Sequence record: NC_073315.1
Length of the DNA: 43,947 nucleotides
Origin: Escherichia phage vB_EcoS_fFiEco03
Direction: 5' to 3' (one strand)
The translations under genes and the position numbers were made by a program. Shown one piece after another: positions 2,755-41,645 of this stretch. Positions within the stretch are counted from its first letter, which is position 1. Every line of letters begins with the position of its first letter. The notes beneath the pieces are model-generated. The model had not been told where the DNA came from. It was given only the letters and a program-made list of their open reading frames with translations, and did no database searches.

Positions 2755-2777
2755 TAGCCCCGAAAGGGGCTTTCTTA
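2755..2777 (+). terminator. Weak intrinsic terminator or attenuator hairpin after portal
   Basis: AGCCCC-GAAA-GGGGCT hairpin followed by TTCTTAT. Confidence 0.35.
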
Positions 2778-2781
2778 TAGT

Positions 2782-3858
2782 ATGCTATTAACTTTAGCGC
2801 CACAGGGTTTATCTATGAGCTTACTTACATCTCTAATCAGCCACCAGATATGGCTGCAACGCACTGCATCCGGTGAGGTGAAAGACCTCGCGCCGTTCAT
2901 TAAGGAGATGCGGGACGAAATAAAACGGCAGGTGCTGTTATTCGGTGACGACGGGCGGAGCACTGCGCGACTGAATAAACTGTTACTCGACCTTGAAGAA
3001 GCACTGACGTGGCTTACAGGTGACTGGCAAACAAAGCTGACAGAAGACCTTAAGGAACTGGCCGCATATGAGGCTGAGTGGAACGTAAAAACACTGACCG
3101 CCAACGTTGACGCGGAATTTGTTACGCCTACCGCCGAACAGGTGTGGGCTGCTGCCGAGTTTCAGCCGCTGTCGTTAAGCGACAAGCCCGTCGATTTCAC
3201 TAAGCTGATGGCAGGCTGGGGTGAAACGGAGGCCGCGCGCCTCGTAACCGGCGTTAAGATGGGGTTTGTTCAGGGCCAAACCACACGGCAGATTGTTAAA
3301 AATGTCGTAGGCGCTGGTGGGCTGGCGGACATCTCTGAACGCAACGCGGCTACGGTAATCCGCACCGCGCTGTCTCACGTATCCAACGAAGCCCGCAACG
3401 AGACATACCGCCAGAACGACGACATCATCGAGAAATACGAGTGGGTGTCAACGCTGGACAGCCGCACCAGCACGATTTGCAGGGCCAGAGACGGAATGAC
3501 GTGGGAAATTGGTAAAGGGCCGATGCCACCCGCGCATCCTAATTGCCGAAGCACCACCGCGCCTGTAATCAGTTCGGAGTTCGACTTCCTCGATAAAGGC
3601 GCAAAACGCGCGGCTAAGGGTGCGGACGGCGGTACTCAGGTAAGTGCAGACACCACCTATTACGAGTTCCTTAAACAACAACCGGCGTGGTTTCAGGATG
3701 AAGCATTAGGGCCAGTTCGCGGTAAGATTTTCCGTAACAGCGGTATATCGCCGGAAGAGTTTCGCGTAATATCTGTAGATGGTTTCGGGAATCCGCTCAC
3801 GCTTAAGCAGATGGCGGAACTCGATAAACGTGTTGCTGATTATCTGAAAGGGGATTAA
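2782..3858 (+). CDS. Head morphogenesis protein (SPP1 gp7 / Mu F-like minor head protein)
   Basis: 358-aa ORF in the terL-portal-morphogenesis order. No clear SD at 2782, and an alternative ATG lies at 2815, so the start is uncertain. Confidence 0.7.
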   Translation: MLLTLAPQGLSMSLLTSLISHQIWLQRTASGEVKDLAPFIKEMRDEIKRQVLLFGDDGRSTARLNKLLLDLEEALTWLTGDWQTKLTEDLKELAAYEAEWNVKTLTANVDAEFVTPTAEQVWAAAEFQPLSLSDKPVDFTKLMAGWGETEAARLVTGVKMGFVQGQTTRQIVKNVVGAGGLADISERNAATVIRTALSHVSNEARNETYRQNDDIIEKYEWVSTLDSRTSTICRARDGMTWEIGKGPMPPAHPNCRSTTAPVISSEFDFLDKGAKRAAKGADGGTQVSADTTYYEFLKQQPAWFQDEALGPVRGKIFRNSGISPEEFRVISVDGFGNPLTLKQMAELDKRVADYLKGD

Positions 3859-4319: not shown

Positions 4320-4323
4320 TAAA

Positions 4324-4353
4324 AGGCCCCGTTAAGGGGCCTTAGTTTTATTT
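4324..4353. terminator. Bidirectional intrinsic terminator at convergent gene ends
   Basis: AGGCCCC-GTTAA-GGGGCCT stem-loop followed by TAGTTTTATTT; lies between the + gene ending 4319 and the - gene ending 4348. Confidence 0.6.
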
Positions 4354-4869
4354 AAATCGCGCTGGCATTAGCACCATAAATGCAGTGTTTGAAAACGATA
4401 TTTTGCATCCTCTGGTTTGGTCCTGGAAATCGAAACGAGCAATTTCATTTTTGTATGCCTTAGAAATCTTGTGCGCGTCTGCCAAGTAGGGCATGGTAAA
4501 TCCTATGCTATCAACTGCCCCCGGCGTGATGTGCGCCACACGTCGCCAGTCAGGAAATTTTCCGTCTACAACATCCACCGGAAGTGTACATATAAGCGCA
4601 CGACTATCGTCATAGAAAGATACACTGCCGTTGTCGTGGTCTACTTCCGCGTAGTTAAATTTAGAAGGCTCTCTCCCTTTTATGTCTATGAGAGCCCCAT
4701 TCTCAACGTTTGTCTTAACATTGTCGCAGAACAATCTATGGCCGTCCGTAGACACTATCAATCCTTCCGGGTCTATGTAAAAAGCGTTCAGATAGTAGCG
4801 TACATCATTTTTAGCCCTGCAGATTTTCGCCCCTACATACGCGGGAAAAGTAATTACTGTGGCAACCAT
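4348..4869 (-). CDS. Truncated DnaN-like (beta sliding clamp-like) protein, 173 aa
   Basis: Contains DVRYYLN...TDGHRL, DGKFPDWRRV and C-terminal MVLMPARFK, matching E. coli DnaN landmarks (DVRYYLNGMLF...TDGHRL, DGRFPDYRRV, VVMPMRL) recalled from memory; AGGAG RBS and own promoter. Confidence 0.6.
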   Translation of the reverse strand: MVATVITFPAYVGAKICRAKNDVRYYLNAFYIDPEGLIVSTDGHRLFCDNVKTNVENGALIDIKGREPSKFNYAEVDHDNGSVSFYDDSRALICTLPVDVVDGKFPDWRRVAHITPGAVDSIGFTMPYLADAHKISKAYKNEIARFDFQDQTRGCKISFSNTAFMVLMPARFK

Positions 4870-4896
4870 TTTACATCTCCTGTTTAAGTTATCCGA

Positions 4897-4925
4897 ATAG
4901 TACCCTATTATGTTGGTGTCTGCAA
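4897..4925 (-). promoter_or_regulatory. Sigma70-like promoter, class I (TTGCAG-N17-TACTAT), drives the DnaN-like gene
   Basis: Read on the - strand: -35 TTGCAG, 17-nt spacer containing ATAATAGGG, -10 TACTAT. Same architecture as the promoters at 14663, 37107 and 38586. Confidence 0.55.
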
Positions 4926-4991
4926 ACTATTTGTTTACGTATTCCAGTTATTCCACTCAATTGTAAATGTTGGAATAAACTATTCGAATAG

Positions 4992-5020
4992 TTGACTTTT
5001 CACTAAAAATATGCTAAGCT
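4992..5020 (+). promoter_or_regulatory. Sigma70-like promoter, class III (TTGACT-N17-TAAGCT, extended -10 TG)
   Basis: -35 TTGACT, 17-nt spacer ending in TGC, -10 TAAGCT. Near-identical to the promoter at 36798..36826. Confidence 0.6.
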
Positions 5021-5026
5021 CCACCT

Positions 5027-5134
5027 GAGCTTGTGAAGTATGAACAAGCGACCGCGGCGCGGGCAGGTAACGGAGCGGGACGTAAGTCCTGAGTGTAGTT
5101 ACGCTGACGCGTTCGGTAGGGCCATACTCTATTG
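5027..5134 (+). ncRNA. Promoter-proximal conserved structured RNA element, copy A (candidate sRNA or cis-acting leader)
   Basis: Begins at the predicted +1 of the 4992 promoter; about 80 percent identical to 36832..36941; two hairpins conserved with compensatory changes; frame not conserved between copies; terminator follows at 5201..5228. Confidence 0.45.
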
Positions 5135-5200
5135 CTTGTGTAAAAAGTAACTGGTTTACTGAGATTACGCCGTTTCAGTGTTTAAATGATAAGGACTAGC

Positions 5201-5228
5201 GCCCCGCTTTATGGCGGGGCTTTACTTA
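5201..5228 (+). terminator. Intrinsic terminator downstream of RNA element copy A
   Basis: GCCCCGC-TTTATG-GCGGGGC 7-bp GC stem followed by TTTACTT. Confidence 0.5.
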
Positions 5229-5244
5229 TCGAGAAAGGAGAAAC

Positions 5245-5631
5245 ATGAATCTTAAAGCAACTGTCGTAGCGGGAGCATGTTTCATCATCCTGGCTTACGC
5301 ACACGGCATCTATCAGTACCGCAGCGGCTGGAACGAAGGCCGGGCGAATCTCGTTTCGCAGCAACAGCAGGAAGCACAGGCTGAGCTGGTGAAGAAAACA
5401 CAACGGCAGCAGCAGGATGAATCAAAGGCCGCCGCCGCTGACAACGAAGGCAAGACGAAATCAGAGGTGATTACCCGTGAAGTCGTTAAGTACATTAAAA
5501 CGCCTGGCCGCAGCGTGTGCACTTTCGACGATGCTCGCGTCCTGCTCAAGTCCCACGCCGTTGCCAACGCCAATTCCATCCCCGGATACGACGATGATGC
5601 AGCCGCCGTGCAAACTGGCACCGCCAAGTAG
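5245..5631 (+). CDS. i-spanin (Rz-like)
   Basis: 128 aa with N-terminal TM segment (ATVVAGACFIILAYA), Q/E-rich coiled-coil region, and an overlapping +1-frame lipoprotein ORF. Confidence 0.65.
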   Translation: MNLKATVVAGACFIILAYAHGIYQYRSGWNEGRANLVSQQQQEAQAELVKKTQRQQQDESKAAAADNEGKTKSEVITREVVKYIKTPGRSVCTFDDARVLLKSHAVANANSIPGYDDDAAAVQTGTAK

Positions 5632-5822: not shown

Positions 5823-6527
5823 ATGAATCGTTTTTTACGTTATCCGTTCCAGGAAGAAGCTGGGGCAGAAGATAAATCTGGCGGTGGCGACGCTCCAAAA
5901 ATGTTCACCGCTGAAGAAGTTCAGGCGCTGATTGAGAAAGAAGTTGCCGGACTTAAGGCCAATCAGGAAGCATTGCTGGCGGAGAAGAAAGAAGCTGCCC
6001 GTAAAGCAAAAGAGGCCGAAGAGGAACGTCAGCGCGCGCACCAGGAGGCGCTAAAAGCCGCCGGTAAGATGGACGAGTTCGAAAAGACGATTCGTAGCCA
6101 GTATGACCCGGTGTTAGCCGAGAAAGATGGTCGCATCTCCAAAATGGCAGAGCGCATCCTCGGCAGCGAACGTAAAGCGGTGTTAGGCTCTTTCGCAGGT
6201 GATTTCATCACACCGGAAGCAGTAGACATTCTTGCTCCGTTCGTTAAGACTGAGTTTGAAGGCGATGACGTGGTTACTAAGTTTGTTGGTGCAGACGGCA
6301 ACGTAATCACAACTGACCCGGAACAGTTCCGCAAGTACCTGCGCGAACACAAAGCGTTTTCGCATTTGATTAAAGCAAATGCAGCTTCCGGCGGCGGGGC
6401 TTCCGGTAGCAAAGGCGGCGGGGCCGCACCAGCGTTTAAAGACATGAGTGAAGCGGAGCGTATCGCTCTGTACGAATCGAACCCTGCCGAATTTGAACGG
6501 CAACTTAAAGCCCTGAGGAAAAAATAA
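5823..6527 (+). CDS. Scaffolding protein (putative)
   Basis: About 234 aa, highly charged and coiled-coil-rich (AEKKEAARKAKEAEEERQRAHQE), immediately upstream of and stop/start-overlapping the major capsid gene. Confidence 0.6.
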   Translation: MNRFLRYPFQEEAGAEDKSGGGDAPKMFTAEEVQALIEKEVAGLKANQEALLAEKKEAARKAKEAEEERQRAHQEALKAAGKMDEFEKTIRSQYDPVLAEKDGRISKMAERILGSERKAVLGSFAGDFITPEAVDILAPFVKTEFEGDDVVTKFVGADGNVITTDPEQFRKYLREHKAFSHLIKANAASGGGASGSKGGGAAPAFKDMSEAERIALYESNPAEFERQLKALRKK

Positions 6528-8334: not shown

Positions 8335-8514
8335 ATGGCAGATAATTACGTAATCCGCGAAAAGTACACCCACGTTGATATTGTTGACGGTCAGGTAATG
8401 CCGGTTCGCGGTGTTGTAGAAGCGGATGAACTGGTTGCGACTCAACCGGACAGCGAAGAAGCGCACAACAACGGCGGCGGTACTAAGCGTCGTCGCCGTA
8501 AGTCAGAGGAATAA
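8335..8514 (+). CDS. Small hypothetical protein, 59 aa, basic C-terminus
   Basis: ATG with AAGGAAAGG RBS; ORF hand-translated (MADNYVIREKY...GTKRRRRKSEE); below the ORF-track cutoff. Confidence 0.4.
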   Translation: MADNYVIREKYTHVDIVDGQVMPVRGVVEADELVATQPDSEEAHNNGGGTKRRRRKSEE

Positions 8515-9745: not shown

Positions 9746-10101
9746 GCACCGCTTTCAGTAAACGTATGCAAGGCGTCGGTACACGCCTGCTAACCAAATT
9801 CGGTAGCACGGTATCTCTTGTTCGCGCTGGCTCGAAAGTGTGGGATGAAGTTCTCGGTGAGTATGTCCGGTCCGCGGATGAAGTGTTGCCGTTGAAGGCT
9901 GTTCCGGTTCCGGTAAACGTTGGACTGGTAAACGGTACGACGATTCAGGCGGGCGACATGATTGTTAAAGCCGATTGCAGTGTCGTTCCTAAGATGGAAG
10001 ACAAGGTGCAATTCGGCGGCGAGCAATGGTCCGTCGTAGCTATCGAGAAGAAGATGGTTAACGATGATGTCGTGGCATACTTTATTCAGGTGAGAAAATG
10101 A
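9742..10101 (+). CDS. Putative head-closure or neck protein
   Basis: ATG at 9742 with AGAGG RBS (the ORF-track start at 9661 is probably an upstream alternative codon); 119 aa; synteny. Confidence 0.4.
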   Translation: MSTAFSKRMQGVGTRLLTKFGSTVSLVRAGSKVWDEVLGEYVRSADEVLPLKAVPVPVNVGLVNGTTIQAGDMIVKADCSVVPKMEDKVQFGGEQWSVVAIEKKMVNDDVVAYFIQVRK

Positions 10102-10493: not shown

Positions 10494-10906
10494 TGGGCTA
10501 CTTTGAAGACTTAACCAAAGCGTTCGACGTGCCGCTGGTAGCCTTCGGGGCCGCCAACGGCATCAGGGTAGCGCTTGAGAACATCGACGCTCCGACGTCA
10601 ACCGATACGCCATACCTTGCGAGTTACATGCTACTGGCGGATACCGAGCAGGCCGACTTATTTTTCACCGAGCAACGTGCAGGTATTTATCAGGTAGACA
10701 TTAACTACGCATCTGTGAAAGGTAGCGCGCCAATCAATAAAATGGCAGACTTACTTAACACGGCATTCAAAGCAGGTAAGTCTTTTTCACGTAACGACAT
10801 CTGCGCCGAAGTGCAATCGGTTAGCCTGGGGCCGCTGATTGTAGAAAATGGATGGGCCAAAAGACCATTGTCGATTAACTTTATTGCATTCACCAAGAGG
10901 CTGTGA
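10490..10906 (+). CDS. Putative tail completion or terminator protein
   Basis: 138-aa ORF immediately upstream of the major tail gene; synteny only. Confidence 0.4.
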   Translation: MMGYFEDLTKAFDVPLVAFGAANGIRVALENIDAPTSTDTPYLASYMLLADTEQADLFFTEQRAGIYQVDINYASVKGSAPINKMADLLNTAFKAGKSFSRNDICAEVQSVSLGPLIVENGWAKRPLSINFIAFTKRL

Positions 10907-12819: not shown

Positions 12820-12845
12820 AAGGCCCCTTTCGGGGCCTTTTTCTT
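12820..12845. terminator. Bidirectional intrinsic terminator (28-nt sequence repeated at 24735..24762)
   Basis: AAGGCCCC-TTTC-GGGGCCTT with U-rich flanks on both strands; convergent junction. Confidence 0.7.
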
Positions 12846-13074
12846 ACTCATCAATATTGCTTCGGTACTCCCGTAACTTCTCCAGGCTTTCGATTGCCTC
12901 AGCTAAGTCTGTCCAGGTGTCCTTGTGACCACGTAAACCCATACACAATAGCTTCTTCAATGCGTGCTGTAACGCCGGGTCGCGTATGTCGAAGGCGCGT
13001 AGCACGTCGTAAACGTCTACAGTCATGGTGCTGCCGTGGGTGTTTGTCATTGTGCGGTTGTATTTATTTGTCAC
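12844..13074 (-). CDS. Hypothetical small protein (start ambiguous: 13074, 13050 or 13026)
   Basis: Last gene of the - strand island; no clear SD for any candidate start. Confidence 0.4.
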   Translation of the reverse strand: MTNKYNRTMTNTHGSTMTVDVYDVLRAFDIRDPALQHALKKLLCMGLRGHKDTWTDLAEAIESLEKLREYRSNIDE

Positions 13075-13264
13075 GGTTAACTCTCTTAAATCGGGCTATG
13101 CCTGACTCGTTAATGCTGCCTATTTCAAAGAAGCTGCGATATTTAGGCGAATACATTCTTACGTCGCCGTTCTCTAGGGTGACCCCTTCATATACAGCGC
13201 CTACTTCGAATCCATTTTTCTCCGCGTACGGACTCACATCGGTGCATTCATACATATCTTTCAT
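13064..13264 (-). CDS. Hypothetical protein, 66 aa
   Basis: ATG overlaps the stop of the upstream phosphoesterase gene (ATGA coupling). Confidence 0.5.
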   Translation of the reverse strand: MKDMYECTDVSPYAEKNGFEVGAVYEGVTLENGDVRMYSPKYRSFFEIGSINESGIARFKRVNRDK

Positions 13265-14391
13265 CCCAGCATCTCCGGTGAAATAGTTAAACGTGCGACC
13301 TCGCCATATTCGGCGCTATAAGTAATTACATTTGCACTACGGCCCGACATCCATCCGCCGCGCGAGGCGTAGGCGTCTTTAGCCGCTAAGGTGCGGTGTT
13401 GCTCAACAATCATGTTACGGCTTTCTACAATCTTCTGGTGGTGGAGGTGGCCTACGTGGGCGTAGCTGTAAACGCTTTCGCCAAATGCTTTGCGGAACTT
13501 GGCAATCATAACCGGTTCGATAGCGTCTAATCGCGCCTTATGCCCGTGGTGAAAGAACAGCGTAGTTTTGCCGTGTTTGACCATCTTGTAAACATCCGGC
13601 GACGTATCGACGAACACACGCGGCTCATTGTCGTACAGCGTACTAAACATCTCAGCTAACCAAATCATTCCGCTTTCGTCGTGGTTCCCTTGCACGATAA
13701 GCAAGCGAACAGATTTATGCTTAACCAGCGCCATGTCAACAACACGGCGTACCATACGAATCATGTAGCGGACCAGTTTCTGATAACGAGTGTCCGCATC
13801 AAGAACATGACCACTCGCTGGCGTAACCGCATCCAGACTATCGAAGTGCGCGAAGTCACCCAGCAGGTTAATAACCCCAGTTCCTGCATCTGGTGCTTTC
13901 TGAAACGCCGCATCGAACCATCGGGAGAACAGGTCTTCCGCAATCTTCATATCCCAGTCGTCGCCGCTCTCGTCAGCCCAGGCCAGCATACCAAGATGGA
14001 AATCAGATACCGTGTACAGATTGAGTAGTTTATCGTCGCGTTTGGCTCGAGTCGCTTTAACCGGCGCAACTGGCGTAATCTCCGACTTCATTCCTTCGAT
14101 CACGGCTTTCATTAACTCGACCTGACGTTCGGCGTCGGTGTCTGTCTTAACCCATTGCAACTTAGTGTTGCCGAACTCGTCCACCAGTGACGACGTTCCT
14201 TTAATTTTGTAGCCGTCCGGGACAAGATGGCTAACGTCACGACCGTGACCTACGCCTTTCTTCGCCAGCTTCGCTTTACGGATACGAATAACTCGGTCTG
14301 AGATGCCGTATTTACGGGATATGTCGATAATCTTTGTTCCGGCGTTCAATTCTTCCTGTAACTGTTCGTCGGTTATTTTCTTCCGGGCCAT
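13261..14391 (-). CDS. Calcineurin-like metallophosphoesterase with N-terminal HTH (SbcD/Mre11-like motifs)
   Basis: Motifs SDFHLG, GDFAHFD, GNHDES, FHHGH and GHLHH in canonical order; N-terminal HTH-like segment (ISRKYGISDRVIRIRKAKL); GAGGAAG RBS. Confidence 0.7.
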   Translation of the reverse strand: MARKKITDEQLQEELNAGTKIIDISRKYGISDRVIRIRKAKLAKKGVGHGRDVSHLVPDGYKIKGTSSLVDEFGNTKLQWVKTDTDAERQVELMKAVIEGMKSEITPVAPVKATRAKRDDKLLNLYTVSDFHLGMLAWADESGDDWDMKIAEDLFSRWFDAAFQKAPDAGTGVINLLGDFAHFDSLDAVTPASGHVLDADTRYQKLVRYMIRMVRRVVDMALVKHKSVRLLIVQGNHDESGMIWLAEMFSTLYDNEPRVFVDTSPDVYKMVKHGKTTLFFHHGHKARLDAIEPVMIAKFRKAFGESVYSYAHVGHLHHQKIVESRNMIVEQHRTLAAKDAYASRGGWMSGRSANVITYSAEYGEVARLTISPEMLG

Positions 14392-14429
14392 GCTTACTTC
14401 CTCGTGTTTAGGATTTGTCCTATACTAGC

Positions 14430-14621
14430 TCACTTCTCTTTGACATTCGAGTTGCAAGCCCAGATTAAAATAAATACCCACGGCAGCAGAACCCAGCCGA
14501 GAAACAGATTAGCCATGAATATCGCCAGTTTCGCTTTATGTCCGCGCATATGGGCCACTAAAAACGGGATAAAATAAACTAAAACGATAATGATTAAGAA
14601 GAACATAGTAATACCTGTCAT
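14430..14621 (-). CDS. Superinfection-immunity-like small membrane protein (2 TM)
   Basis: 63 aa from ATG 14621 with AGGAG RBS; motif YFIPFLVAHMRGHKAKLAIFMANLFLGWVLLPWVFILIWA resembles the Imm-type superinfection immunity family (recalled). Confidence 0.5.
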   Translation of the reverse strand: MTGITMFFLIIIVLVYFIPFLVAHMRGHKAKLAIFMANLFLGWVLLPWVFILIWACNSNVKEK

Positions 14622-14662
14622 GGTGTAGCTCCTGTTTGAGTTAACATTGTTGGTGTAAGTGA

Positions 14663-14691
14663 ATAGTATCCTATTATGTTGGGGTGCGCAA
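14663..14691 (-). promoter_or_regulatory. Sigma70-like promoter, class I (TTGCGC-N17-TACTAT), drives the reverse island
   Basis: On the - strand: TTGCGC, spacer ACCCCAACATAATAGGA, TACTAT. Near-identical to the + strand promoter at 37107..37135. Confidence 0.55.
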
Positions 14692-14799: not shown

Positions 14800-15216
14800 A
14801 TGAAACTTTCTGATTTTTATTACGAAGCTGAGGCAGAAAAAGGCGCCCGTATGCCGATACCACTGAAAGACGGCACCGATTCAGGGGAGTGGCTGAACGT
14901 TGTTTCACCGGAGGCAGACGTTGCTGTTAAAGCTATGAGGGCGTTTACACTTGCGTACCGCGCGGCATTAGGTAAATTGAAACCGCTTCGCGATAAATGC
15001 GAGGAACTGAAAGATTTCTCGGAATACAACATCAAGATGGAAGACGCCGCAACGGACCTTAACCGCCAGTTAGCGCTTGAACTGGTTAACGGTTGGAGTC
15101 TCGACGATGAATTTAATAAAGAGAACCTGAATACTCTTTTCTCACAATATAAACGACTCGCTGAACACGTTGTTGTTTTCCACAATGAACAGCTTCACCA
15201 ATTGCAGGAAAAGTAG
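14800..15216 (+). CDS. Tail assembly chaperone (gpG-like)
   Basis: 138-aa acidic protein directly upstream of the tape measure gene, with an overlapping downstream ORF in the -1 frame. Confidence 0.65.
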   Translation: MKLSDFYYEAEAEKGARMPIPLKDGTDSGEWLNVVSPEADVAVKAMRAFTLAYRAALGKLKPLRDKCEELKDFSEYNIKMEDAATDLNRQLALELVNGWSLDDEFNKENLNTLFSQYKRLAEHVVVFHNEQLHQLQEK

Positions 15217-26505: not shown

Positions 26506-26999
26506 GCCTTGAACTCCCCGAAGTATATTTCCGCGGCTCTTTGGTATACGCGCGACGCTTCTTCTATAGTATCAAAATAGCCAAGGTGGATGTATTTGTT
26601 ATTGACGCCTATTCTGGCGCGCCACCTGCCAGAGGGTATTTGGTAAACCCCTATCGCGCCGCTAGTGTTATGTGATGAGCAGTCTCGGTTCTGAATCTGC
26701 TGGCTCCTGGTTGCTGGCCTTATATTATTTATGGCGTTATTAGCCCTGTTACGGTCTTTATGGTCAAGCTCACCATTATGATATTCTCCGTAGACGAAAG
26801 CCCATGCCAGATGGTGGGCTTTTATTCTTACACCGGAGACTGTAATAACTATGTATCCTTTGTCGTTTGGCCCTCCGGCTACCTCCCCCGCATTTCTCCC
26901 TTTTATGCTTACTTTTCGTGTAAATATACCGGTTTCGGGGTCATAGTTAAGAAGACGTTTCGCCTCCTCAATATCAGGCCTTCTTGTTAATTTGTTCAT
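26502..26999 (-). CDS. HNH homing endonuclease with C-terminal AP2 domain
   Basis: HNH_3-like GYIVITVSGVRIKAHHLAWAFVYGEYHNGELDHKDRNRANNAINNIR followed by AP2-like GAIGVYQIPSGRWRARIGVNNKYIHLGYFDTIEEASRVY; AT-richer than flanks. Confidence 0.8.
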   Translation of the reverse strand: MNKLTRRPDIEEAKRLLNYDPETGIFTRKVSIKGRNAGEVAGGPNDKGYIVITVSGVRIKAHHLAWAFVYGEYHNGELDHKDRNRANNAINNIRPATRSQQIQNRDCSSHNTSGAIGVYQIPSGRWRARIGVNNKYIHLGYFDTIEEASRVYQRAAEIYFGEFKA

Positions 27000-27187
27000 T
27001 TCAGCACCAGAACTAACTCTTTACGCCCGAACGCCGTAACGTTACCGGTTACGTCTTCGATAACCAGTTTACCGTTCGACTCGACGAACACCGTATCAAC
27101 GGCAACAGGGCGACGGGTCTTAACGTTGAAAATCATGTCGCCCGGTACGATGTCACGTGCTGGTTTGCGGTCATATTCGTGTTTCAT
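26996..27187 (-). CDS. Hypothetical protein, 63 aa
   Basis: AAGGA RBS; first gene downstream of the 27221 promoter. Confidence 0.5.
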   Translation of the reverse strand: MKHEYDRKPARDIVPGDMIFNVKTRRPVAVDTVFVESNGKLVIEDVTGNVTAFGRKELVLVLK

Positions 27188-27217
27188 TTCTCAATTCCTT
27201 ATATTGTTGGTGTAGGG

Positions 27218-27502
27218 CTAACTATAATAGTTCGCTATTAGGTCGTCAACCTGTTTGAACGACCCGACGACAAAAACATTCGCGCCGCGTTTGCGCATAC
27301 GCTCATGCTCACGTAACTGGTGTGGGTCTGGCTTCGTGTTTTCGTCTTTCTTAACCTCGACGAACCAGACGATACCGTTGGGGAGAATTACCAGCAGGTC
27401 GGGGGCGCCGGAACGCCCCTCGTAGGAAAGTTTACGAACGAGGCCGCCGATAGCCTCGAATCGCTCTTTTGCGTATTTCTGGATGCGCCCCTCTTTAGTC
27501 AT
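27218..27502 (-). CDS. VRR-NUC domain nuclease (putative)
   Basis: 94 aa from ATG 27502 (ATGA-coupled); pattern G.PDLLVILPNGIVWFVEVKK...Q consistent with a VRR-NUC PD-(D/E)xK core (recalled). Confidence 0.55.
   Translation of the reverse strand: MTKEGRIQKYAKERFEAIGGLVRKLSYEGRSGAPDLLVILPNGIVWFVEVKKDENTKPDPHQLREHERMRKRGANVFVVGSFKQVDDLIANYYS
27221..27249 (-). promoter_or_regulatory. Sigma70-like promoter, class II (TTGACG-N17-TATAGT), embedded in the 3' end of the VRR-NUC gene
   Basis: On the - strand: TTGACG, spacer ACCTAATAGCGAACTAT, TATAGT. Same design as the promoters at 30954 and 33569. Confidence 0.55.
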
Positions 27503-27651
27503 GAGCGCAGAACCCAAGTTATAAACGCCCCGCCTAAAATGGCAACACCAACAAACTTAAAGAACAGGCCATAACAGAACATCGCGGCTATTCCTGCGCC
27601 GAGTAGCAGTGCGAGCATGGTTACTATCGTCCAAAATACAAACATTGTCAT
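27499..27651 (-). CDS. Micro-ORF: 50-aa two-TM membrane peptide
   Basis: Hand-translated MTMFVFWTIVTMLALLLGAGIAAMFCYGLFFKFVGVAILGGAFITWVLRS; ATGA overlaps at both ends. Confidence 0.4.
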   Translation of the reverse strand: MTMFVFWTIVTMLALLLGAGIAAMFCYGLFFKFVGVAILGGAFITWVLRS

Positions 27652-30267: not shown

Positions 30268-30900
30268 TTAACGGCGACGACGTTCGCGGCGAGGTGCTTC
30301 ATCTTTTTCATCGTCATCGTCTTCCAGGTCATTGACGCTTGCGGCGACTTTAGAACCACCAAACGCTTTACCTTCGCCAACATATTTAATTGCCAGCAGG
30401 TTAACGCCTAGAACTTTATATTTCTGGCTGAACCAGATTTCAACGCTTACATTAGCTACGCAGCCACTGTAAACCTGTTCACCTTCAATCTGTTCGCCGT
30501 CTACGTTGAAGTCCTGCTCCACCTGAGTCTCACCTTTTTTAGAGGTTACAATCAGCGGCTGCTTCTGCGCCTTCGCTTTGAAGTAGAAGCCTTCTGGGAA
30601 GTCTTCAAACGGGTTATCACGCTCAGCAATGTCTTTAATCGCGCATTTATCCATGTGCTTACCTTCGCCGTAGTTGGACTTCATCCACTTCTCGGCAGCG
30701 GCTGCGCCTAACGCTTCTTCAACTACAGCGTAGACAGTGTCGTAGAGCGCGTCGATTTGCGCGTGGTCAGACGGCAGGATTATAGTCGCGCTGTACTGGC
30801 CTTTAGTGATGGAGCCATCATCGTTTTCACGGTCTTTTTCGCGTTCGAATACGTTAACCCATGCAGTGTTTACTTTACGCAGATTCAGTTTAATACCCAT
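30268..30900 (-). CDS. Putative ssDNA-binding protein (DUF2815-like)
   Basis: 210 aa, acidic Asp/Glu-rich C-terminal tail; position between the Cas4-like nuclease and the polymerase, as in modules where DUF2815 pairs with DUF2800 (recalled). Confidence 0.5.
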   Translation of the reverse strand: MGIKLNLRKVNTAWVNVFEREKDRENDDGSITKGQYSATIILPSDHAQIDALYDTVYAVVEEALGAAAAEKWMKSNYGEGKHMDKCAIKDIAERDNPFEDFPEGFYFKAKAQKQPLIVTSKKGETQVEQDFNVDGEQIEGEQVYSGCVANVSVEIWFSQKYKVLGVNLLAIKYVGEGKAFGGSKVAASVNDLEDDDDEKDEAPRRERRRR

Positions 30901-30953: not shown

Positions 30954-30982
30954 ACTATAATAGCTAACTATTCAGGTGTCAA
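30954..30982 (-). promoter_or_regulatory. Sigma70-like promoter, class II (TTGACA-N17-TATAGT)
   Basis: On the - strand: TTGACA, spacer CCTGAATAGTTAGCTAT, TATAGT; upstream of the SSB-like gene. Confidence 0.6.
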
Positions 30983-30986
30983 CACT

Positions 30987-32261
30987 TTATTCTAAATCTT
31001 CTTCACTAACACGACTCCACTCAGGCCGTTTGTCGCCCGCCGTTGTGATGCATGGGGCACCTGGTTTACGTGTGATGAAGTCTTTCAGTTCTTCTTCCGG
31101 CACAACTTTAACCGCTTCGGTCGGCGTCATGAGCACTTCTTTAGTCAGCTTGTCGCCGTAGAGTTCTGTTACTTTCTCCGCGTCTTTCCACGCACGATTG
31201 CCCATCTTACCTTCAACCAGCTTGTACCCAGGAACTTTCTTACCGGAATGCAACGCGGCAGCCATAGCTTTCTCAACCTTGTCGATGTGCTGGCGCAACA
31301 ACGGCAACTTCTCGTACTCAGCTACGAGTTCCTCCGGCGTAAGTTCCAGCGCAAAGTCGTCCTCCAGTTCTTCCGCCAGTACATCGTTAACGGTTTTTGT
31401 ACGCGCGGCGCATTGTTCAGAGAACCGACACCACTGACAACCATCGACCGACGGCTTAAAGTCAGACGCTTTCAGGTTCTTCTTGCCGCGGGAATAGGCA
31501 TCGAGCGCTAACAGTGCTCGTTTTTGTGCAAACTTAGCGAACAGTTCAAGGCCTTCAACCGAGATGTCCCACTCCGACGCACCGCCCGCGTACGGCTGGA
31601 AGATAACCAGACGGACCACGGTGATGTTATAACGTCTCTTGAGTCTGCGATAAACACCGAGAGCGTAAAGCATAAGCTGCTTGTTTTCTTTCGCTTCGAC
31701 ACGATGCCGACCCGTTTTAAGGTCGCCAATAATGAGCATGTACTCGTCGGTGTTAGCCAGTTCCTGAACGGCAACAAGGTCAGCCGTTCCGAACGTCTCT
31801 AAATCATCTTCCTCGCCTTCTTCACCTTCAACGGGTACTTTGTACCCGGGGTGTAGAATCTGCGTAAGATTGATACGCATTTCCAGCTTGGCGTAAGTCG
31901 CTACATCAATAATCGCTTTGCAGTAGTCGGTATACTTTTGCACCTGCTCAATCATGTCCGCCGTAATCAGTACCGCGCCTTTCATCGGGCTGATTAGCGC
32001 CTTAATCTGGCCTTTACCCTCATCCAGCACGTAAGCACCGACTTCACGCTCTAGCGGCAACGCAGTTCCGCGGATATAGGCGTTGAGATGGACCTCAGCT
32101 ATTGTGTGCATAGCTGTGCCTAATACAGCAGCTTTACCGGACGTGTTAGGGATATCTTTTTCACAGGCAAGTGATGCGGCGCAACTTAGCCACTTTTTAG
32201 CGCCTGACGGCGACAGTAATGCGTGAACATCGTTATTGCCGCCGCGTTCCTTTAAAATCAT
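30987..32261 (-). CDS. PD-(D/E)xK exonuclease, Cas4/RecB-like (DUF2800-like) with Cys cluster
   Basis: Start at ATG 32261 (ATGA-coupled); C-terminal CQWCRFSEQC plus N-terminal Cys; IIGDLKTGR and QLMLYALG motifs. Confidence 0.65.
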   Translation of the reverse strand: MILKERGGNNDVHALLSPSGAKKWLSCAASLACEKDIPNTSGKAAVLGTAMHTIAEVHLNAYIRGTALPLEREVGAYVLDEGKGQIKALISPMKGAVLITADMIEQVQKYTDYCKAIIDVATYAKLEMRINLTQILHPGYKVPVEGEEGEEDDLETFGTADLVAVQELANTDEYMLIIGDLKTGRHRVEAKENKQLMLYALGVYRRLKRRYNITVVRLVIFQPYAGGASEWDISVEGLELFAKFAQKRALLALDAYSRGKKNLKASDFKPSVDGCQWCRFSEQCAARTKTVNDVLAEELEDDFALELTPEELVAEYEKLPLLRQHIDKVEKAMAAALHSGKKVPGYKLVEGKMGNRAWKDAEKVTELYGDKLTKEVLMTPTEAVKVVPEEELKDFITRKPGAPCITTAGDKRPEWSRVSEEDLE

Positions 32262-33538: not shown

Positions 33539-33568
33539 TTTATCTCTCCTCTCGTTTGGTATGGGCTA

Positions 33569-33597
33569 ACTATAATAGCGAACTATTCACATGTCAA
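33569..33597 (-). promoter_or_regulatory. Sigma70-like promoter, class II (TTGACA-N17-TATAGT), divergent from the Cro-like gene
   Basis: On the - strand: TTGACA, spacer TGTGAATAGTTCGCTAT, TATAGT. Confidence 0.6.
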
Positions 33598-33621
33598 TGG
33601 GCTTTTCTAAAATAATTAATA

Positions 33622-33630
33622 TGGTACTAT
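33622..33630 (+). promoter_or_regulatory. Extended -10 promoter (TGgTACTAT) for the Cro-like gene
   Basis: TG-N-TACTAT with a poor -35; overlaps the second ACTATTCACAT(A/G)TCAA repeat. Confidence 0.45.
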
Positions 33631-33661
33631 TCACATATCAACTGACTAAGGAGTAATTGAC

Positions 33662-33877
33662 ATGCAACCATCTGAACTAGGTATCCGTGTAGAGCAACGC
33701 CGCAAAGAACTCGGCATCTCCCAGCGCCGTCTGGCTGTCCTGGCGGGCGTTTCCCAGGGCGCGATTAACCAGCTGGCACTTGGGGCAACTCAGGACGTCC
33801 GCCCGGCGACGCTGTTTAAACTGGCGGAAGTGCTGCAAGTAGACGCTAAGTGGCTGGCGTTCGGTGAAGGGGCTTAA
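33662..33877 (+). CDS. XRE-family HTH transcriptional regulator (Cro/CI-type)
   Basis: 71 aa; HTH ISQRRLAVLAGVSQGAINQLALG; AAGGAG RBS; monocistronic between its promoter and a terminator. Confidence 0.8.
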   Translation: MQPSELGIRVEQRRKELGISQRRLAVLAGVSQGAINQLALGATQDVRPATLFKLAEVLQVDAKWLAFGEGA

Positions 33878-36220: not shown

Positions 36221-36511
36221 TTATCTTTTAGCCAGACATTCCATCAAATGCTCGTACTTACGGTAATAATCTACGACAATCTCATCACCGAAATACTGAT
36301 ACACGTACGCTAAGTGGTCAGAGACATCGATGGAAGCCGACATTGTGCTGAGGCTTCTTAGACTAATCAACTGCAATTCTTCTGTAACGCAAAACGGCGA
36401 ATATGAGTCCAGTTTACAGGAAACGTTAAAACACAACGCGTATTCACCTTGCACTAAATAAACCATATAAGCATTGTCGTTCTCTTTATCGTGGAAAATT
36501 ACACCTTTCAT
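36221..36511 (-). CDS. Hypothetical protein, 96 aa
   Basis: ATGA-coupled to the upstream HTH gene; AT-rich. Confidence 0.45.
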   Translation of the reverse strand: MKGVIFHDKENDNAYMVYLVQGEYALCFNVSCKLDSYSPFCVTEELQLISLRSLSTMSASIDVSDHLAYVYQYFGDEIVVDYYRKYEHLMECLAKR

Positions 36512-36690
36512 TTCACGTTCTCCTTAATCCACGCTTCAACTTTATTGCGGTCGAATGTCCCTGGTAAACGGCGGCCCATAACCTTAATACAGCAATCCGG
36601 GAATTTGCCACTGCGCAACCAGTTATTAATTGTCTGACGTGTCACCCCGATACGTTCAGCTACTTCATTCTGGGTCATGTAATGCTGCAT
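36508..36690 (-). CDS. AlpA/Xis-like HTH DNA-binding protein
   Basis: Start at ATG 36690 with AGGAG RBS; MTQNEVAERIGVTRQTINNWLRSGKFP resembles the AlpA/excisionase HTH family. Confidence 0.55.
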   Translation of the reverse strand: MQHYMTQNEVAERIGVTRQTINNWLRSGKFPDCCIKVMGRRLPGTFDRNKVEAWIKENVK

Positions 36691-36797: not shown

Positions 36798-36826
36798 TTG
36801 ACTTTTACTTAAAAATATGCTAAGCT
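36798..36826 (+). promoter_or_regulatory. Sigma70-like promoter, class III (TTGACT-N17-TAAGCT, extended -10 TG)
   Basis: Near-identical to 4992..5020 (spacer differs at 2 positions). Confidence 0.6.
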
Positions 36827-37106: not shown

Positions 37107-37135
37107 TTGCACACCCCAATATAATAGGATACTAT
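37107..37135 (+). promoter_or_regulatory. Sigma70-like promoter, class I (TTGCAC-N17-TACTAT)
   Basis: TTGCAC, spacer ACCCCAATATAATAGGA, TACTAT; followed by a conserved AACGAGA..GGAG leader. Confidence 0.6.
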
Positions 37136-37168
37136 TCACTTATCTAAACGAGACAGAGGAGTAGGGTT

Positions 37169-38429: not shown

Positions 38430-38472
38430 TGTTATATTGTAACAATAGTTTGGGATTTTACTGAGTGACTTA

Positions 38473-38508
38473 CGCTGCTACACAGCAGCGTATCATTTTT
38501 CTCATTTT
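38473..38508 (+). terminator. Intrinsic terminator
   Basis: CGCTGCT-ACAC-AGCAGCG followed by TATCATTTTTCTCATTTTT. Confidence 0.65.
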
Positions 38509-38585: not shown

Positions 38586-38614
38586 TTGCACACTGGGATA
38601 GAATAGGCTACTAT
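38586..38614 (+). promoter_or_regulatory. Sigma70-like promoter, class I (TTGCAC-N17-TACTAT)
   Basis: TTGCAC, spacer ACTGGGATAGAATAGGC, TACTAT; conserved AACGAGAGGAG leader. Confidence 0.6.
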
Positions 38615-38635
38615 TCATTTACACAAACGAGAGGA

Positions 38636-38662
38636 GAGACGGAATATGAGTAACAAAAACGA
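38636..38662 (+). repeat. 27-nt direct repeat, copy 1 (RBS plus first 6 codons; copy 2 at 38821..38847)
   Basis: GAGACGgaATATGAGTAACAAAAACGA versus GAGACGtaTTATGAGTAACAAAAACGA (25 of 27 identical). Confidence 0.7.
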
Positions 38663-41563: not shown

Positions 41564-41584
41564 TCTATTTTCTGCAATGACTAG

Positions 41585-41613
41585 TTGACTATTAACATCG
41601 ACCCTATTATATT
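41585..41613 (+). promoter_or_regulatory. Sigma70-like promoter (TTGACT-N17-TATATT)
   Basis: TTGACT, spacer ATTAACATCGACCCTAT, TATATT; conserved AACGAGAGGAG leader. Confidence 0.55.
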
Positions 41614-41645
41614 TACTCCATCGACAACGAGAGGAGAGGCAGAGA

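Follow-up and report, generated by a model that had tools for sequence, protein, structure and literature searches.

The operators of phages 434 and P22 are AT-rich dyads of 14 bp and 18 bp (7-4-7), respectively, that are bound by dimers with their centres uncontacted, that overlap the -35 and -10 elements of early promoters, and that occur in several copies clustered at the divergent promoter region of the regulator; operator-controlled early promoters of this kind are textbook lambdoid biology. Here we analyze a family of predicted, repeated promoters in Escherichia phage vB_EcoS_fFiEco03 (NC_073315.1), whose 43,947-bp sequence is referred to as a whole as the window, with the focus on the copy at 37107..37136 of the + strand. 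The promoters share a dyad, AATAG-N4-CTATT, that resembles the 434 and P22 operators in its conserved arms, its variable centre, and its overlap with core promoter elements, and the window also encodes a comparable regulator candidate, a protein of ~70 aa with a helix-turn-helix (HTH) domain of the HTH_3 family that aligns over its full length with 434 Cro. The two settings differ in that the window phage is virulent and has no cI partner, integrase, or immunity region, and in that its putative operators are single sites scattered over seven to nine promoters rather than tripartite OL/OR arrays. In addition, the half-site AATAG differs from those of 434 and P22, and the covariation of recognition helix and operator across genera is not neat. 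We assign a probability of about one half to the interpretation that these are promoters for host RNA polymerase (RNAP) with an embedded operator for a phage HTH dimer, likeliest the Cro-like protein, which would jointly repress early, replication, and immunity units. The mechanism so proposed is familiar; its setting is new.

The first letters of the window are the ATG of the terminase large subunit gene, and over its whole length the window matched Escherichia siphophages of the genus Kagunavirus (Guernseyvirinae) by Megablast; it is therefore the complete genome of a virulent phage. The identity to vB_EcoS_fFiEco02 was 97.7% in the region of the promoter finding and that to Ivi and Snoke was 92-93% in the structural half, and there were hundreds of weaker matches to Salmonella Jerseyviruses. 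The comparative set comprised 51 related IMG/VR loci around the gene for the Cro-like protein together with the reference genomes of fBC-Eco01 (Kagunavirus; L003), PVP-SE2 (Jerseyvirus), and FSL SP-031 (Cornellvirus; L004); L017 and L030 denote two Kagunavirus contigs.

A first-pass annotation of the window had reported promoters of the form TTGC(A/G)(C/G)-N17-TACTAT at four loci. Searching for this pattern returned exactly four matches, at 4897..4925(-), 14663..14691(-), 37107..37135(+), and 38586..38614(+), as had been claimed and against 0.03 expected from shuffles, so the reported pattern is genuine and far in excess of what chance would give. All four sites are in the proper orientation, 28-42 nt 5' of the first start codon of a unit, and host sigma-70-type promoters are the best explanation of their sequences. 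Some details required revision. The spacer motif ATAATAGG(G/A) is present in three copies, with the 38586 copy reading AGAATAGGC instead, and the 14663 and 37107 copies, described as identical over about 30 nt, agree at 34 of 36 positions with a longest exact run of 22 nt (ATAATAGGATACTATTCACTTA). The description of the cores as near-identical is apt for the palindrome that they contain but not for the RNAP contacts, as the hexamers match the sigma-70 consensus at only 7 of 12 positions.

The four-locus family itself consists of genuine sites but is incomplete. When both strands are read, ATAATAGGATACTATT forms a perfect 14-bp dyad, AATAG-N4-CTATT, with the extended form TGAATAG-N4-CTATTAT. 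The window contains seven exact copies of the dyad (4896, 14662, 27226, 30959, 33574, 37123, and 38602) in comparison to 0.035 expected, along with one-mismatch copies at 33618, 41580, 2776, and 4987. Terminator stems aside, it is the only enriched 5-N-5 palindrome genome-wide. Each of the seven exact palindromes precedes a unit of early, replication, or immunity genes, at 26-58 nt from its first start codon, and no copy precedes the head or tail genes of the window. We predict a palindrome-bearing promoter family of at least seven and probably nine members, heading early, DNA-replication/recombination, and superinfection-immunity units:

37107..37136, + strand: focal class I promoter, TTGCAC-17-TACTAT, with palindrome AATAGGATACTATT at 37123..37136 overlapping the -10; predicted to drive small early genes from 37169.
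38586..38615, + strand: class I promoter, TTGCAC-17-TACTAT, with palindrome AATAGGCTACTATT at 38602..38615; follows the terminator at 38471..38492 and is predicted to drive 38646.. through the lysis genes.
14662..14691, - strand: class I promoter, TTGCGC-17-TACTAT, with palindrome at 14662..14675; predicted to drive the superinfection-immunity gene (14430..14621) and the exonuclease gene (13261..14391).
4896..4925, - strand: class I promoter, TTGCAG-17-TACTAT, with palindrome at 4896..4909; predicted to drive the clamp/RusA-like gene (4348..4869).
33569..33597, - strand: class II promoter, TTGACA-17-TATAGT, 11/12, with palindrome AATAGCGAACTATT at 33574..33587 in the spacer; predicted to drive 33538.. 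leftward.
30954..30982, - strand: class II promoter, TTGACA-17-TATAGT, 11/12, with palindrome at 30959..30972; predicted to drive the SSB gene (30268..30900) and DNA polymerase A.
27221..27249, - strand: class II promoter, TTGACG-17-TATAGT, 10/12, with palindrome at 27226..27239; predicted to drive 27187...
33586..33631, + strand: probable promoter of the Cro-like gene (Pcro), TTCACA-16-TAAAAT, 10/12, with the 33574 palindrome at the -35 and the one-mismatch palindrome AATATGGTACTATT at 33618..33631, at about +1.
41580..41613, + strand: promoter, TTGACT-17-TATATT, 10/12, with the -35 inside the one-mismatch quasi-palindrome ACTAGTTGACTATT; follows a terminator and is predicted to drive 41646.. 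toward the packaging genes.

The two classes place the same dyad differently. The window has no better sigma-70 matches than the class II sites (11/12, 11/12, and 10/12, with a 17-bp spacer), and for this reason their hexamers need nothing from the palindrome. The class I sites also have a 17-bp spacer, their hexamers match the consensus at 3/6 and 4/6 positions, and they keep TTG, A-11, and T-7. The dyad lies over the -10 in class I (about -19..-6) and in the spacer in class II (about -25..-12), so that its register relative to the hexamers is shifted by 6 bp, and if oriented by its asymmetric flanks (TGAATAG / ATAATAG) it is also inverted relative to transcription between the classes. The degenerate dyads are found over the -35 (41580, where the quasi-palindrome is conserved in Kaguna- and Jerseyviruses) or at about +1 (33618), and a third register is seen in the imm promoter of the Jerseyvirus PVP-SE2 (TTGCAT-17-TATTAT, with the dyad at about -22..-9). 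The dyads of PVP-SE2 fall inside promoters that its authors had predicted independently with phiSITE (8401-8473, 10826-10874, 15036-15084, and 27255-27303).

Conservation was concentrated in the arms of the palindrome, which retained 1.93-2.0 bits in the orthologues (the 51 IMG/VR contigs plus the reference genomes). At the three class II sites, values fell to 1.0-1.5 bits in the centre and to 1.3-1.4 bits in the 5 nt that separate the -35 from the palindrome; at the two class I sites scored and at Pcro, the region was nearly invariant throughout (centre, 1.7-1.95 bits; flank, 1.9 bits) and uninformative on arms versus centre. The orthologous sites used for these scores were picked by their arms, and two groups (26 and 19 sequences) were re-extracted by flanking anchors alone. 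The palindrome was present with at most one mismatch in 26 of 26 unique Kaguna/Jersey orthologues of the 30959 site, which showed eight centre variants, and in 19 of 19 unique orthologues of the 38602 site from the same genera. The arms were invariant in the 25 unique orthologue sequences of the 37123 site, and the Pcro region was nearly invariant in 29 unique orthologues. Overall, up to eight centre variants were found per site, as well as 1-nt indels beside the arms. The -35-like TTGCAC was invariant even where the adjoining spacer varied (38602 site). Because the left arm of the class II palindrome is conserved although it lies in a part of the spacer that is hardly read by sigma-70 RNAP, another sequence-specific reader is called for.

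These results bear on how the conserved spacer is to be understood. It is more than inherited cassette sequence, being dyad-symmetric, common to three stronger promoters of other geometry, and under selection in its arms rather than its centre. The first-pass annotation was partly right: the sites do appear to be promoters and to be reused, and what it missed is that the shared core looks like the dyad operator of a larger regulon. At the level of genera, Kagunavirus and Jerseyvirus loci contain 1-3 exact dyads per 10 kb, in contrast to none in Cornellvirus-like loci. The latter phages have two promoter-embedded ATTAS-N4-STAAT near-dyads per genome, against 0.14 expected (14067 and 26545 in FSL SP-031; also in L050-L052), which are possibly a diverged counterpart of the operator; the resemblance is suggestive but thin.

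The first-pass annotation had also described a conserved AACGAGA(G)GAG leader after the + strand copies and the promoter at 41585. This leader was confirmed, with AACGAGAGGAG exact at two of the positions and a variant, AACGAGACAGAGGAG, at the third, and a further exact copy that had been overlooked was located 3' of a promoter with different hexamers:

37147..37161, + strand: leader AACGAGACAGAGGAG, which includes the Shine-Dalgarno sequence and has a 4-nt insert relative to AACGAGAGGAG; 11 nt after the -10.
38626..38636, + strand: leader AACGAGAGGAG; 11 nt after the -10.
41626..41636, + strand: leader AACGAGAGGAG; 12 nt after the -10.
33546..33556, - strand: leader AACGAGAGGAG; 12 nt after the -10 of a class II promoter.

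The AACGAG leader thus begins 11-12 nt after the -10 in four promoters (37107, 38586, 41585, and 33597-) with three hexamer pairs. A constant distance across promoter types is expected of a common start point and identifies TACTAT as the probable working -10. The perfect TATAAT at 37117..37122 was rejected in this role since no -35 lies 16-18 bp away from it and since TACTAT is favoured by the fixed distance to the leader. Alternative sigma factors (sigma-32, -38, -54, -28, and -24) were likewise set aside for class I after a comparison made by eye, in which the spacings and key bases did not fit. A second shared 5' leader, TACACCAACAAT, occurs in two exact copies, at 14646..14657(-) and 27203..27214(-), in comparison to 0.17 expected at one mismatch or fewer, and its start follows the -10 by 5-6 nt in one class I promoter (14691-) and one class II promoter (27249-).

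The units headed by these promoters include the early genes of the first-pass annotation, which had assigned them to morons and early genes, but extend to the clamp/RusA-like gene, the exonuclease, SSB, DNA polymerase, helicases, and lysis genes. The clamp/RusA-like gene at 4348..4869(-) is an antisense insert inside the + strand array of head genes. The unit from 27187(-) encodes a 63-aa protein, an HNH endonuclease, and an SNF2 helicase, and its promoter overlaps the last codons of the open reading frame (ORF) at 27218..27517; the products of the unit from 33538(-) include a NinX-like protein and a DUF2800 nuclease. On the + strand the promoters serve two arrays of small genes, of which the array from 38646 continues into holins and endolysin. 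The 38586 and 41585 promoters are each situated 3' of a terminator.

Two small HTH proteins are encoded in the window and are the candidates for binding the dyad:

33662..33877, + strand: Cro-like HTH_3 protein, 71 aa (Pfam HTH_3, 1.2e-12); leading candidate.
36508..36690, - strand: HTH_17 (excisionase/MerR-like) protein, 60 aa (Pfam HTH_17, 4.2e-8); rival candidate.

The closest solved relative of the Cro-like protein is phage 434 Cro, to which it aligns over its full length (E = 1.9e-6); the 434 repressor also aligns with it, as does P22 C2 more weakly. The gene of the Cro-like protein was found in every palindrome-bearing genome examined and sits in a compact divergent region in which the 33574 dyad lies in the leftward promoter's spacer, directly next to the -35 of the rightward promoter, and the 33618 dyad lies at about +1 of the latter. 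We consider the Cro-like protein the most likely binder of the palindrome, ahead of HTH_17, because of its fold, the logic of the dyad, the site beside its own gene, and two natural losses of HTH_17. In the mechanism that we propose, host RNAP would fire the palindrome-bearing promoters on phage entry; a phage HTH dimer would then accumulate and bind the dyads, wherever they lie over the -10, the spacer, the -35, or +1; and the bound dimer would occlude RNAP, such that early, replication, and immunity units would be turned down together. The central 4 bp of the dyad would be uncontacted, as in the 434 and P22 operators. Should the Cro-like protein be the binder, its own gene would be autoregulated through the two dyads at its divergent promoter. 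Occlusion is favoured over activation by each of the dyad placements, and MerR-type activation is disfavoured by the 17-bp spacers.

Several observations count against this interpretation, either as to the binder or as to the sign of regulation. The recognition helix of the Cro-like protein is QGAINQ in Kagunavirus and QSLITH in Jerseyvirus even though the palindrome arms are the same, and the Cornellvirus helix QSAISH resembles that of Jerseyvirus, yet Cornellvirus lacks the palindrome; a naive mapping onto 434 thus predicts the wrong pattern. Across the three genera, the presence or absence of HTH_17 tracks the palindrome better. The weak hexamers of class I (3/6 and 4/6) might require activation rather than repression. 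A coarse, gene-level RNA-seq study of the Kagunavirus vB_Eco_K1B4 names only one of its four 'early' genes, the HTH-domain gene 008, and classes the 'specific DNA binding' gene 004 as 'middle'; judged by gene order, gene 008 is probably HTH_17 and gene 004 is probably the Cro-like gene. Within Kagunavirus, one recognition helix is common to all variants of the Cro-like protein. When close homologues were sought outside the clade, all 20 matches were 75-98% identical and mostly on contigs of 28-45 kb, and the six that were aligned had the same recognition helix and so added no informative variation. The Cro-like gene of one Jerseyvirus record, L054, is frameshifted by a 1-nt insertion at about 9995..10010, which is probably a sequencing error and hence uninformative.

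The same operator logic would apply if the binder were the 60-aa HTH_17 protein, acting as an early product that represses the palindrome promoters or remodels them in a MerR-like manner; we regard this as unlikely. Homologues of HTH_17 are confined to the palindrome-carrying genera, as all 441 records belong to Kaguna- and Jerseyviruses with none found outside them, and Cornellvirus-like genomes have neither the protein nor the palindrome. The HTH segment is almost identical between Kaguna- and Jerseyvirus proteins (80% identity overall), the class II palindrome lies in the spacer where MerR-type regulators bind, and the only early gene named in the RNA-seq study is probably this one. Excisionase-type HTH_17 proteins, however, are typically found as monomers on direct repeats rather than on dyads, and the promoter spacers are 17 bp in length rather than the 19-20 bp needed for MerR-type activation. 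Furthermore, L017 and L030 have no HTH_17 gene anywhere on the contig, yet they keep three and six exact palindromes, respectively. In these contigs (L017, 3624..4209; L030, 12559..13144) unrelated genes take the place of the HTH_17 gene and the gene next to it. Their products are a 149-aa protein that matched no family and a 47-aa zinc-ribbon-like protein that weakly matched HNH/endonuclease VII PHROGs, and neither replacement has a recognizable DNA-binding domain.

It is similarly improbable, in our estimation, that these are plain reused cassettes without a dedicated regulator, in which the palindrome arose incidentally, through duplication or gene conversion among promoters or because -10-like elements on opposite strands overlap. 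The paralogous class I copies do share bases that look non-functional (34 of 36 positions between 14691 and 37107), the cassettes demonstrably recombine inside the promoter, and the reverse strand at 37146..37118 reads TAGATA-17-TATATT, a 9/12 match with class II geometry that faces the HTH_17/primase operon. Gene conversion would, however, homogenize the centre as well, whereas the centres vary between sites and orthologues and the arms do not, and the left arm of class II is as conserved as the hexamers despite its position in the spacer. The possibility that all class I sites are reverse-firing class II-type promoters was rejected: such a promoter is plausible only at 37123, one of the four sites, and fails at 38602, where the -10 would be TCTATC and nothing lies 3' on the minus strand.

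There is a smaller chance, which we would call slim, that the dyad is read by another factor, either a host DNA-binding protein or an unrecognized phage protein. Neither HTH candidate fits all of the comparative data, and many small early ORFs have no assigned function. As for the host, Cornellviruses infect the same Salmonella hosts but do not have the motif, and no regulator of E. coli or Salmonella is known to us that recognizes AATAG-N4-CTATT. As for the phage, the only other small gene that is common to Kaguna- and Jerseyviruses, kept in L017 and L030, and absent from Cornellvirus is 26996..27187, whose 63-aa product has no Pfam match, hits only a PHROG of unknown function, and to judge from its sequence is not an obvious DNA binder.

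The element has in fact been published as a sequence under the wrong label. In fBC-Eco01 (PMC9825357), PHIRE returned 'phage RNAP promoters' in seven copies with the consensus tgAATAGTa-ccTATTat-T, which are orthologous to sites of the window, and for VB_EcoS-Golestan (PMC7203180) it lists seven copies, including TAATAGGATACTATTCACTT and the relic at 2775, as conserved or phage-specific promoters. The orthologue of the 30959 site in fBC-Eco01, at 31347, is an exact palindrome that PHIRE missed. An element of ~20 bp that is repeated several times in a ~44-kb genome and detected by the same software does resemble promoters of the T7/SP6 type, but promoters for a phage-encoded RNAP are effectively ruled out because no RNAP gene is annotated in fBC-Eco01 and other annotated relatives or found among the ORFs of the window (the only ORF of more than 800 aa encodes a tail protein, the other large ones being PolA, helicases, primase-helicase, and structural proteins), and because the element, unlike a T7-type promoter, has dyad symmetry, is found in either orientation with respect to the gene that follows it, and is accompanied by canonical -35/-10 hexamers of the sigma-70 kind. 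In the passages and tables consulted from the fBC-Eco01 and Golestan papers, the elements figure as promoters only, and neither their dyad symmetry nor the two geometries, the sigma-70 hexamers, or a candidate binder is mentioned. A literature search on Guernseyvirinae found no start-site mapping or binding study and only the one coarse RNA-seq study in Kagunavirus, and a search for the motif string itself returned only noise. Few phages are isolated more often than Kaguna- and Jerseyviruses for use against E. coli and Salmonella in therapy and biocontrol. For these phages, reading the element as a sigma-70 promoter plus operator would correct published annotations, define a regulon that can be tested directly, with seven to nine promoters, two candidate proteins, and specified mutations of the arms, and offer compact phage-controlled promoter parts for engineering.

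The reuse of these promoters as cassettes, also proposed in the first-pass annotation, was borne out by comparison with fBC-Eco01. In the 4896 unit of the window, the gene, the leader, the dyad, and TGGTGTCTGCAA are as in the 3919 cassette of fBC-Eco01, and the sequence from the -35 outward is the flank of the 6063 cassette; the unit is thus a recombinant of two cassettes with the crossover inside the promoter, between the palindrome and the -35 (window 4870..4990 versus L003 3880..3990 and 6030..6160). The cassette with the clamp-like gene occupies a different island in the window and in fBC-Eco01. One position retains only a remnant of a cassette:

2776..2789: relic one-mismatch palindrome, TATAGTATGCTATT, where fBC-Eco01 has a promoter-plus-gene cassette that is missing in the window.

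The leader at the 37123 site is shared between phages whose gene content diverges right after it, into two unrelated sets of genes. The shared promoter and leader sequences thus serve as homology patches for the exchange of gene cassettes, and such swap points between relatives matter for predicting the accessory genes of therapeutic isolates. Promoter-early stem-loops (PeSLs) are mobile regulatory cassettes of T4-type phages, and the window cassettes are like them in being repeated early-promoter cassettes beside small accessory genes, with homology patches for modular shuffling. Unlike PeSLs, they have no stem-loop terminator, carry a protein-type dyad, and also head core replication operons.

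A further pair of repeated units is located near the palindrome promoters. The 360-bp gap 5' of 37107 contains a promoter, TTGACTTTT-N3-TAAAAATATGCTAAGCT (36798..36826, +), that is identical to 4992..5020(+); both have a TTGACT -35, a 17-nt spacer, and a TGn-extended -10 (TTGACT-17-TGnTAAGCT). Each leads into one of two paralogous GC-rich cores of ~115 nt with 80% identity (units 4992..~5225 and 36798..~37045), so that one structured RNA would lie 170-310 nt 5' of the focal promoter. Six divergent copies of the RNA fold independently to the same four-helix shape with five different apical hairpins, the compensatory changes include GGUAAC/GUUAC, GGGAAC/GUUCC, and GGAAAC/GUUUC, and the folding z-scores were -2.75 and -3.27; Rfam gave no match anywhere in the window. 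The 321-bp non-coding segment at 4925..5245 (copy A) is 95-99% identical in 176 phage records, of which 65 are Salmonella phage records. For the 25-kb structural half, 396 of 534 matching records, mostly Salmonella phages, are only 60-80% identical. The conservation of 4925..5245 implies extreme constraint or recent horizontal spread. Copy B of L017 and L030 is closer to copy A, with 88% identity.

Both RNA copies head long + strand arrays that are interrupted by intrinsic terminators, and the RNA may be a put-like antitermination RNA or a leader of the lambda PR' or 6S-like type. Bidirectional terminators at 12820..12839 and 4323..4343 bound the minus-strand islands 12844..14621 and 4348..4869 within the + strand structural operon. 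Since no sigma-70-like promoter of at least 9/12 was found between 14700 and 14800 that would restart transcription of the tail genes, late transcription may need to read through the terminators that bound the islands. One could combine these features into a two-part timing circuit, which we offer as speculation with little likelihood of holding in full: a Cro-like repressor without cI would gradually silence eight or nine operator-bearing promoters, and the paired RNAs would make RNAP terminator-resistant in cis like the HK022 put RNAs, with the two long + strand arrays transcribed late by read-through of the terminators at 5201, 7592, 12820, 38471, and 41540. Just 5' of the 38471 terminator, the window has a degenerate palindrome, AATAGTTTGGGATT, at 38444..38457, and in seven of the related loci (L005, L009, L015, L025, L029, L030, and L033) an extra exact palindrome precedes the orthologous terminator, where it follows tandem GGTGTAACAGG repeats.

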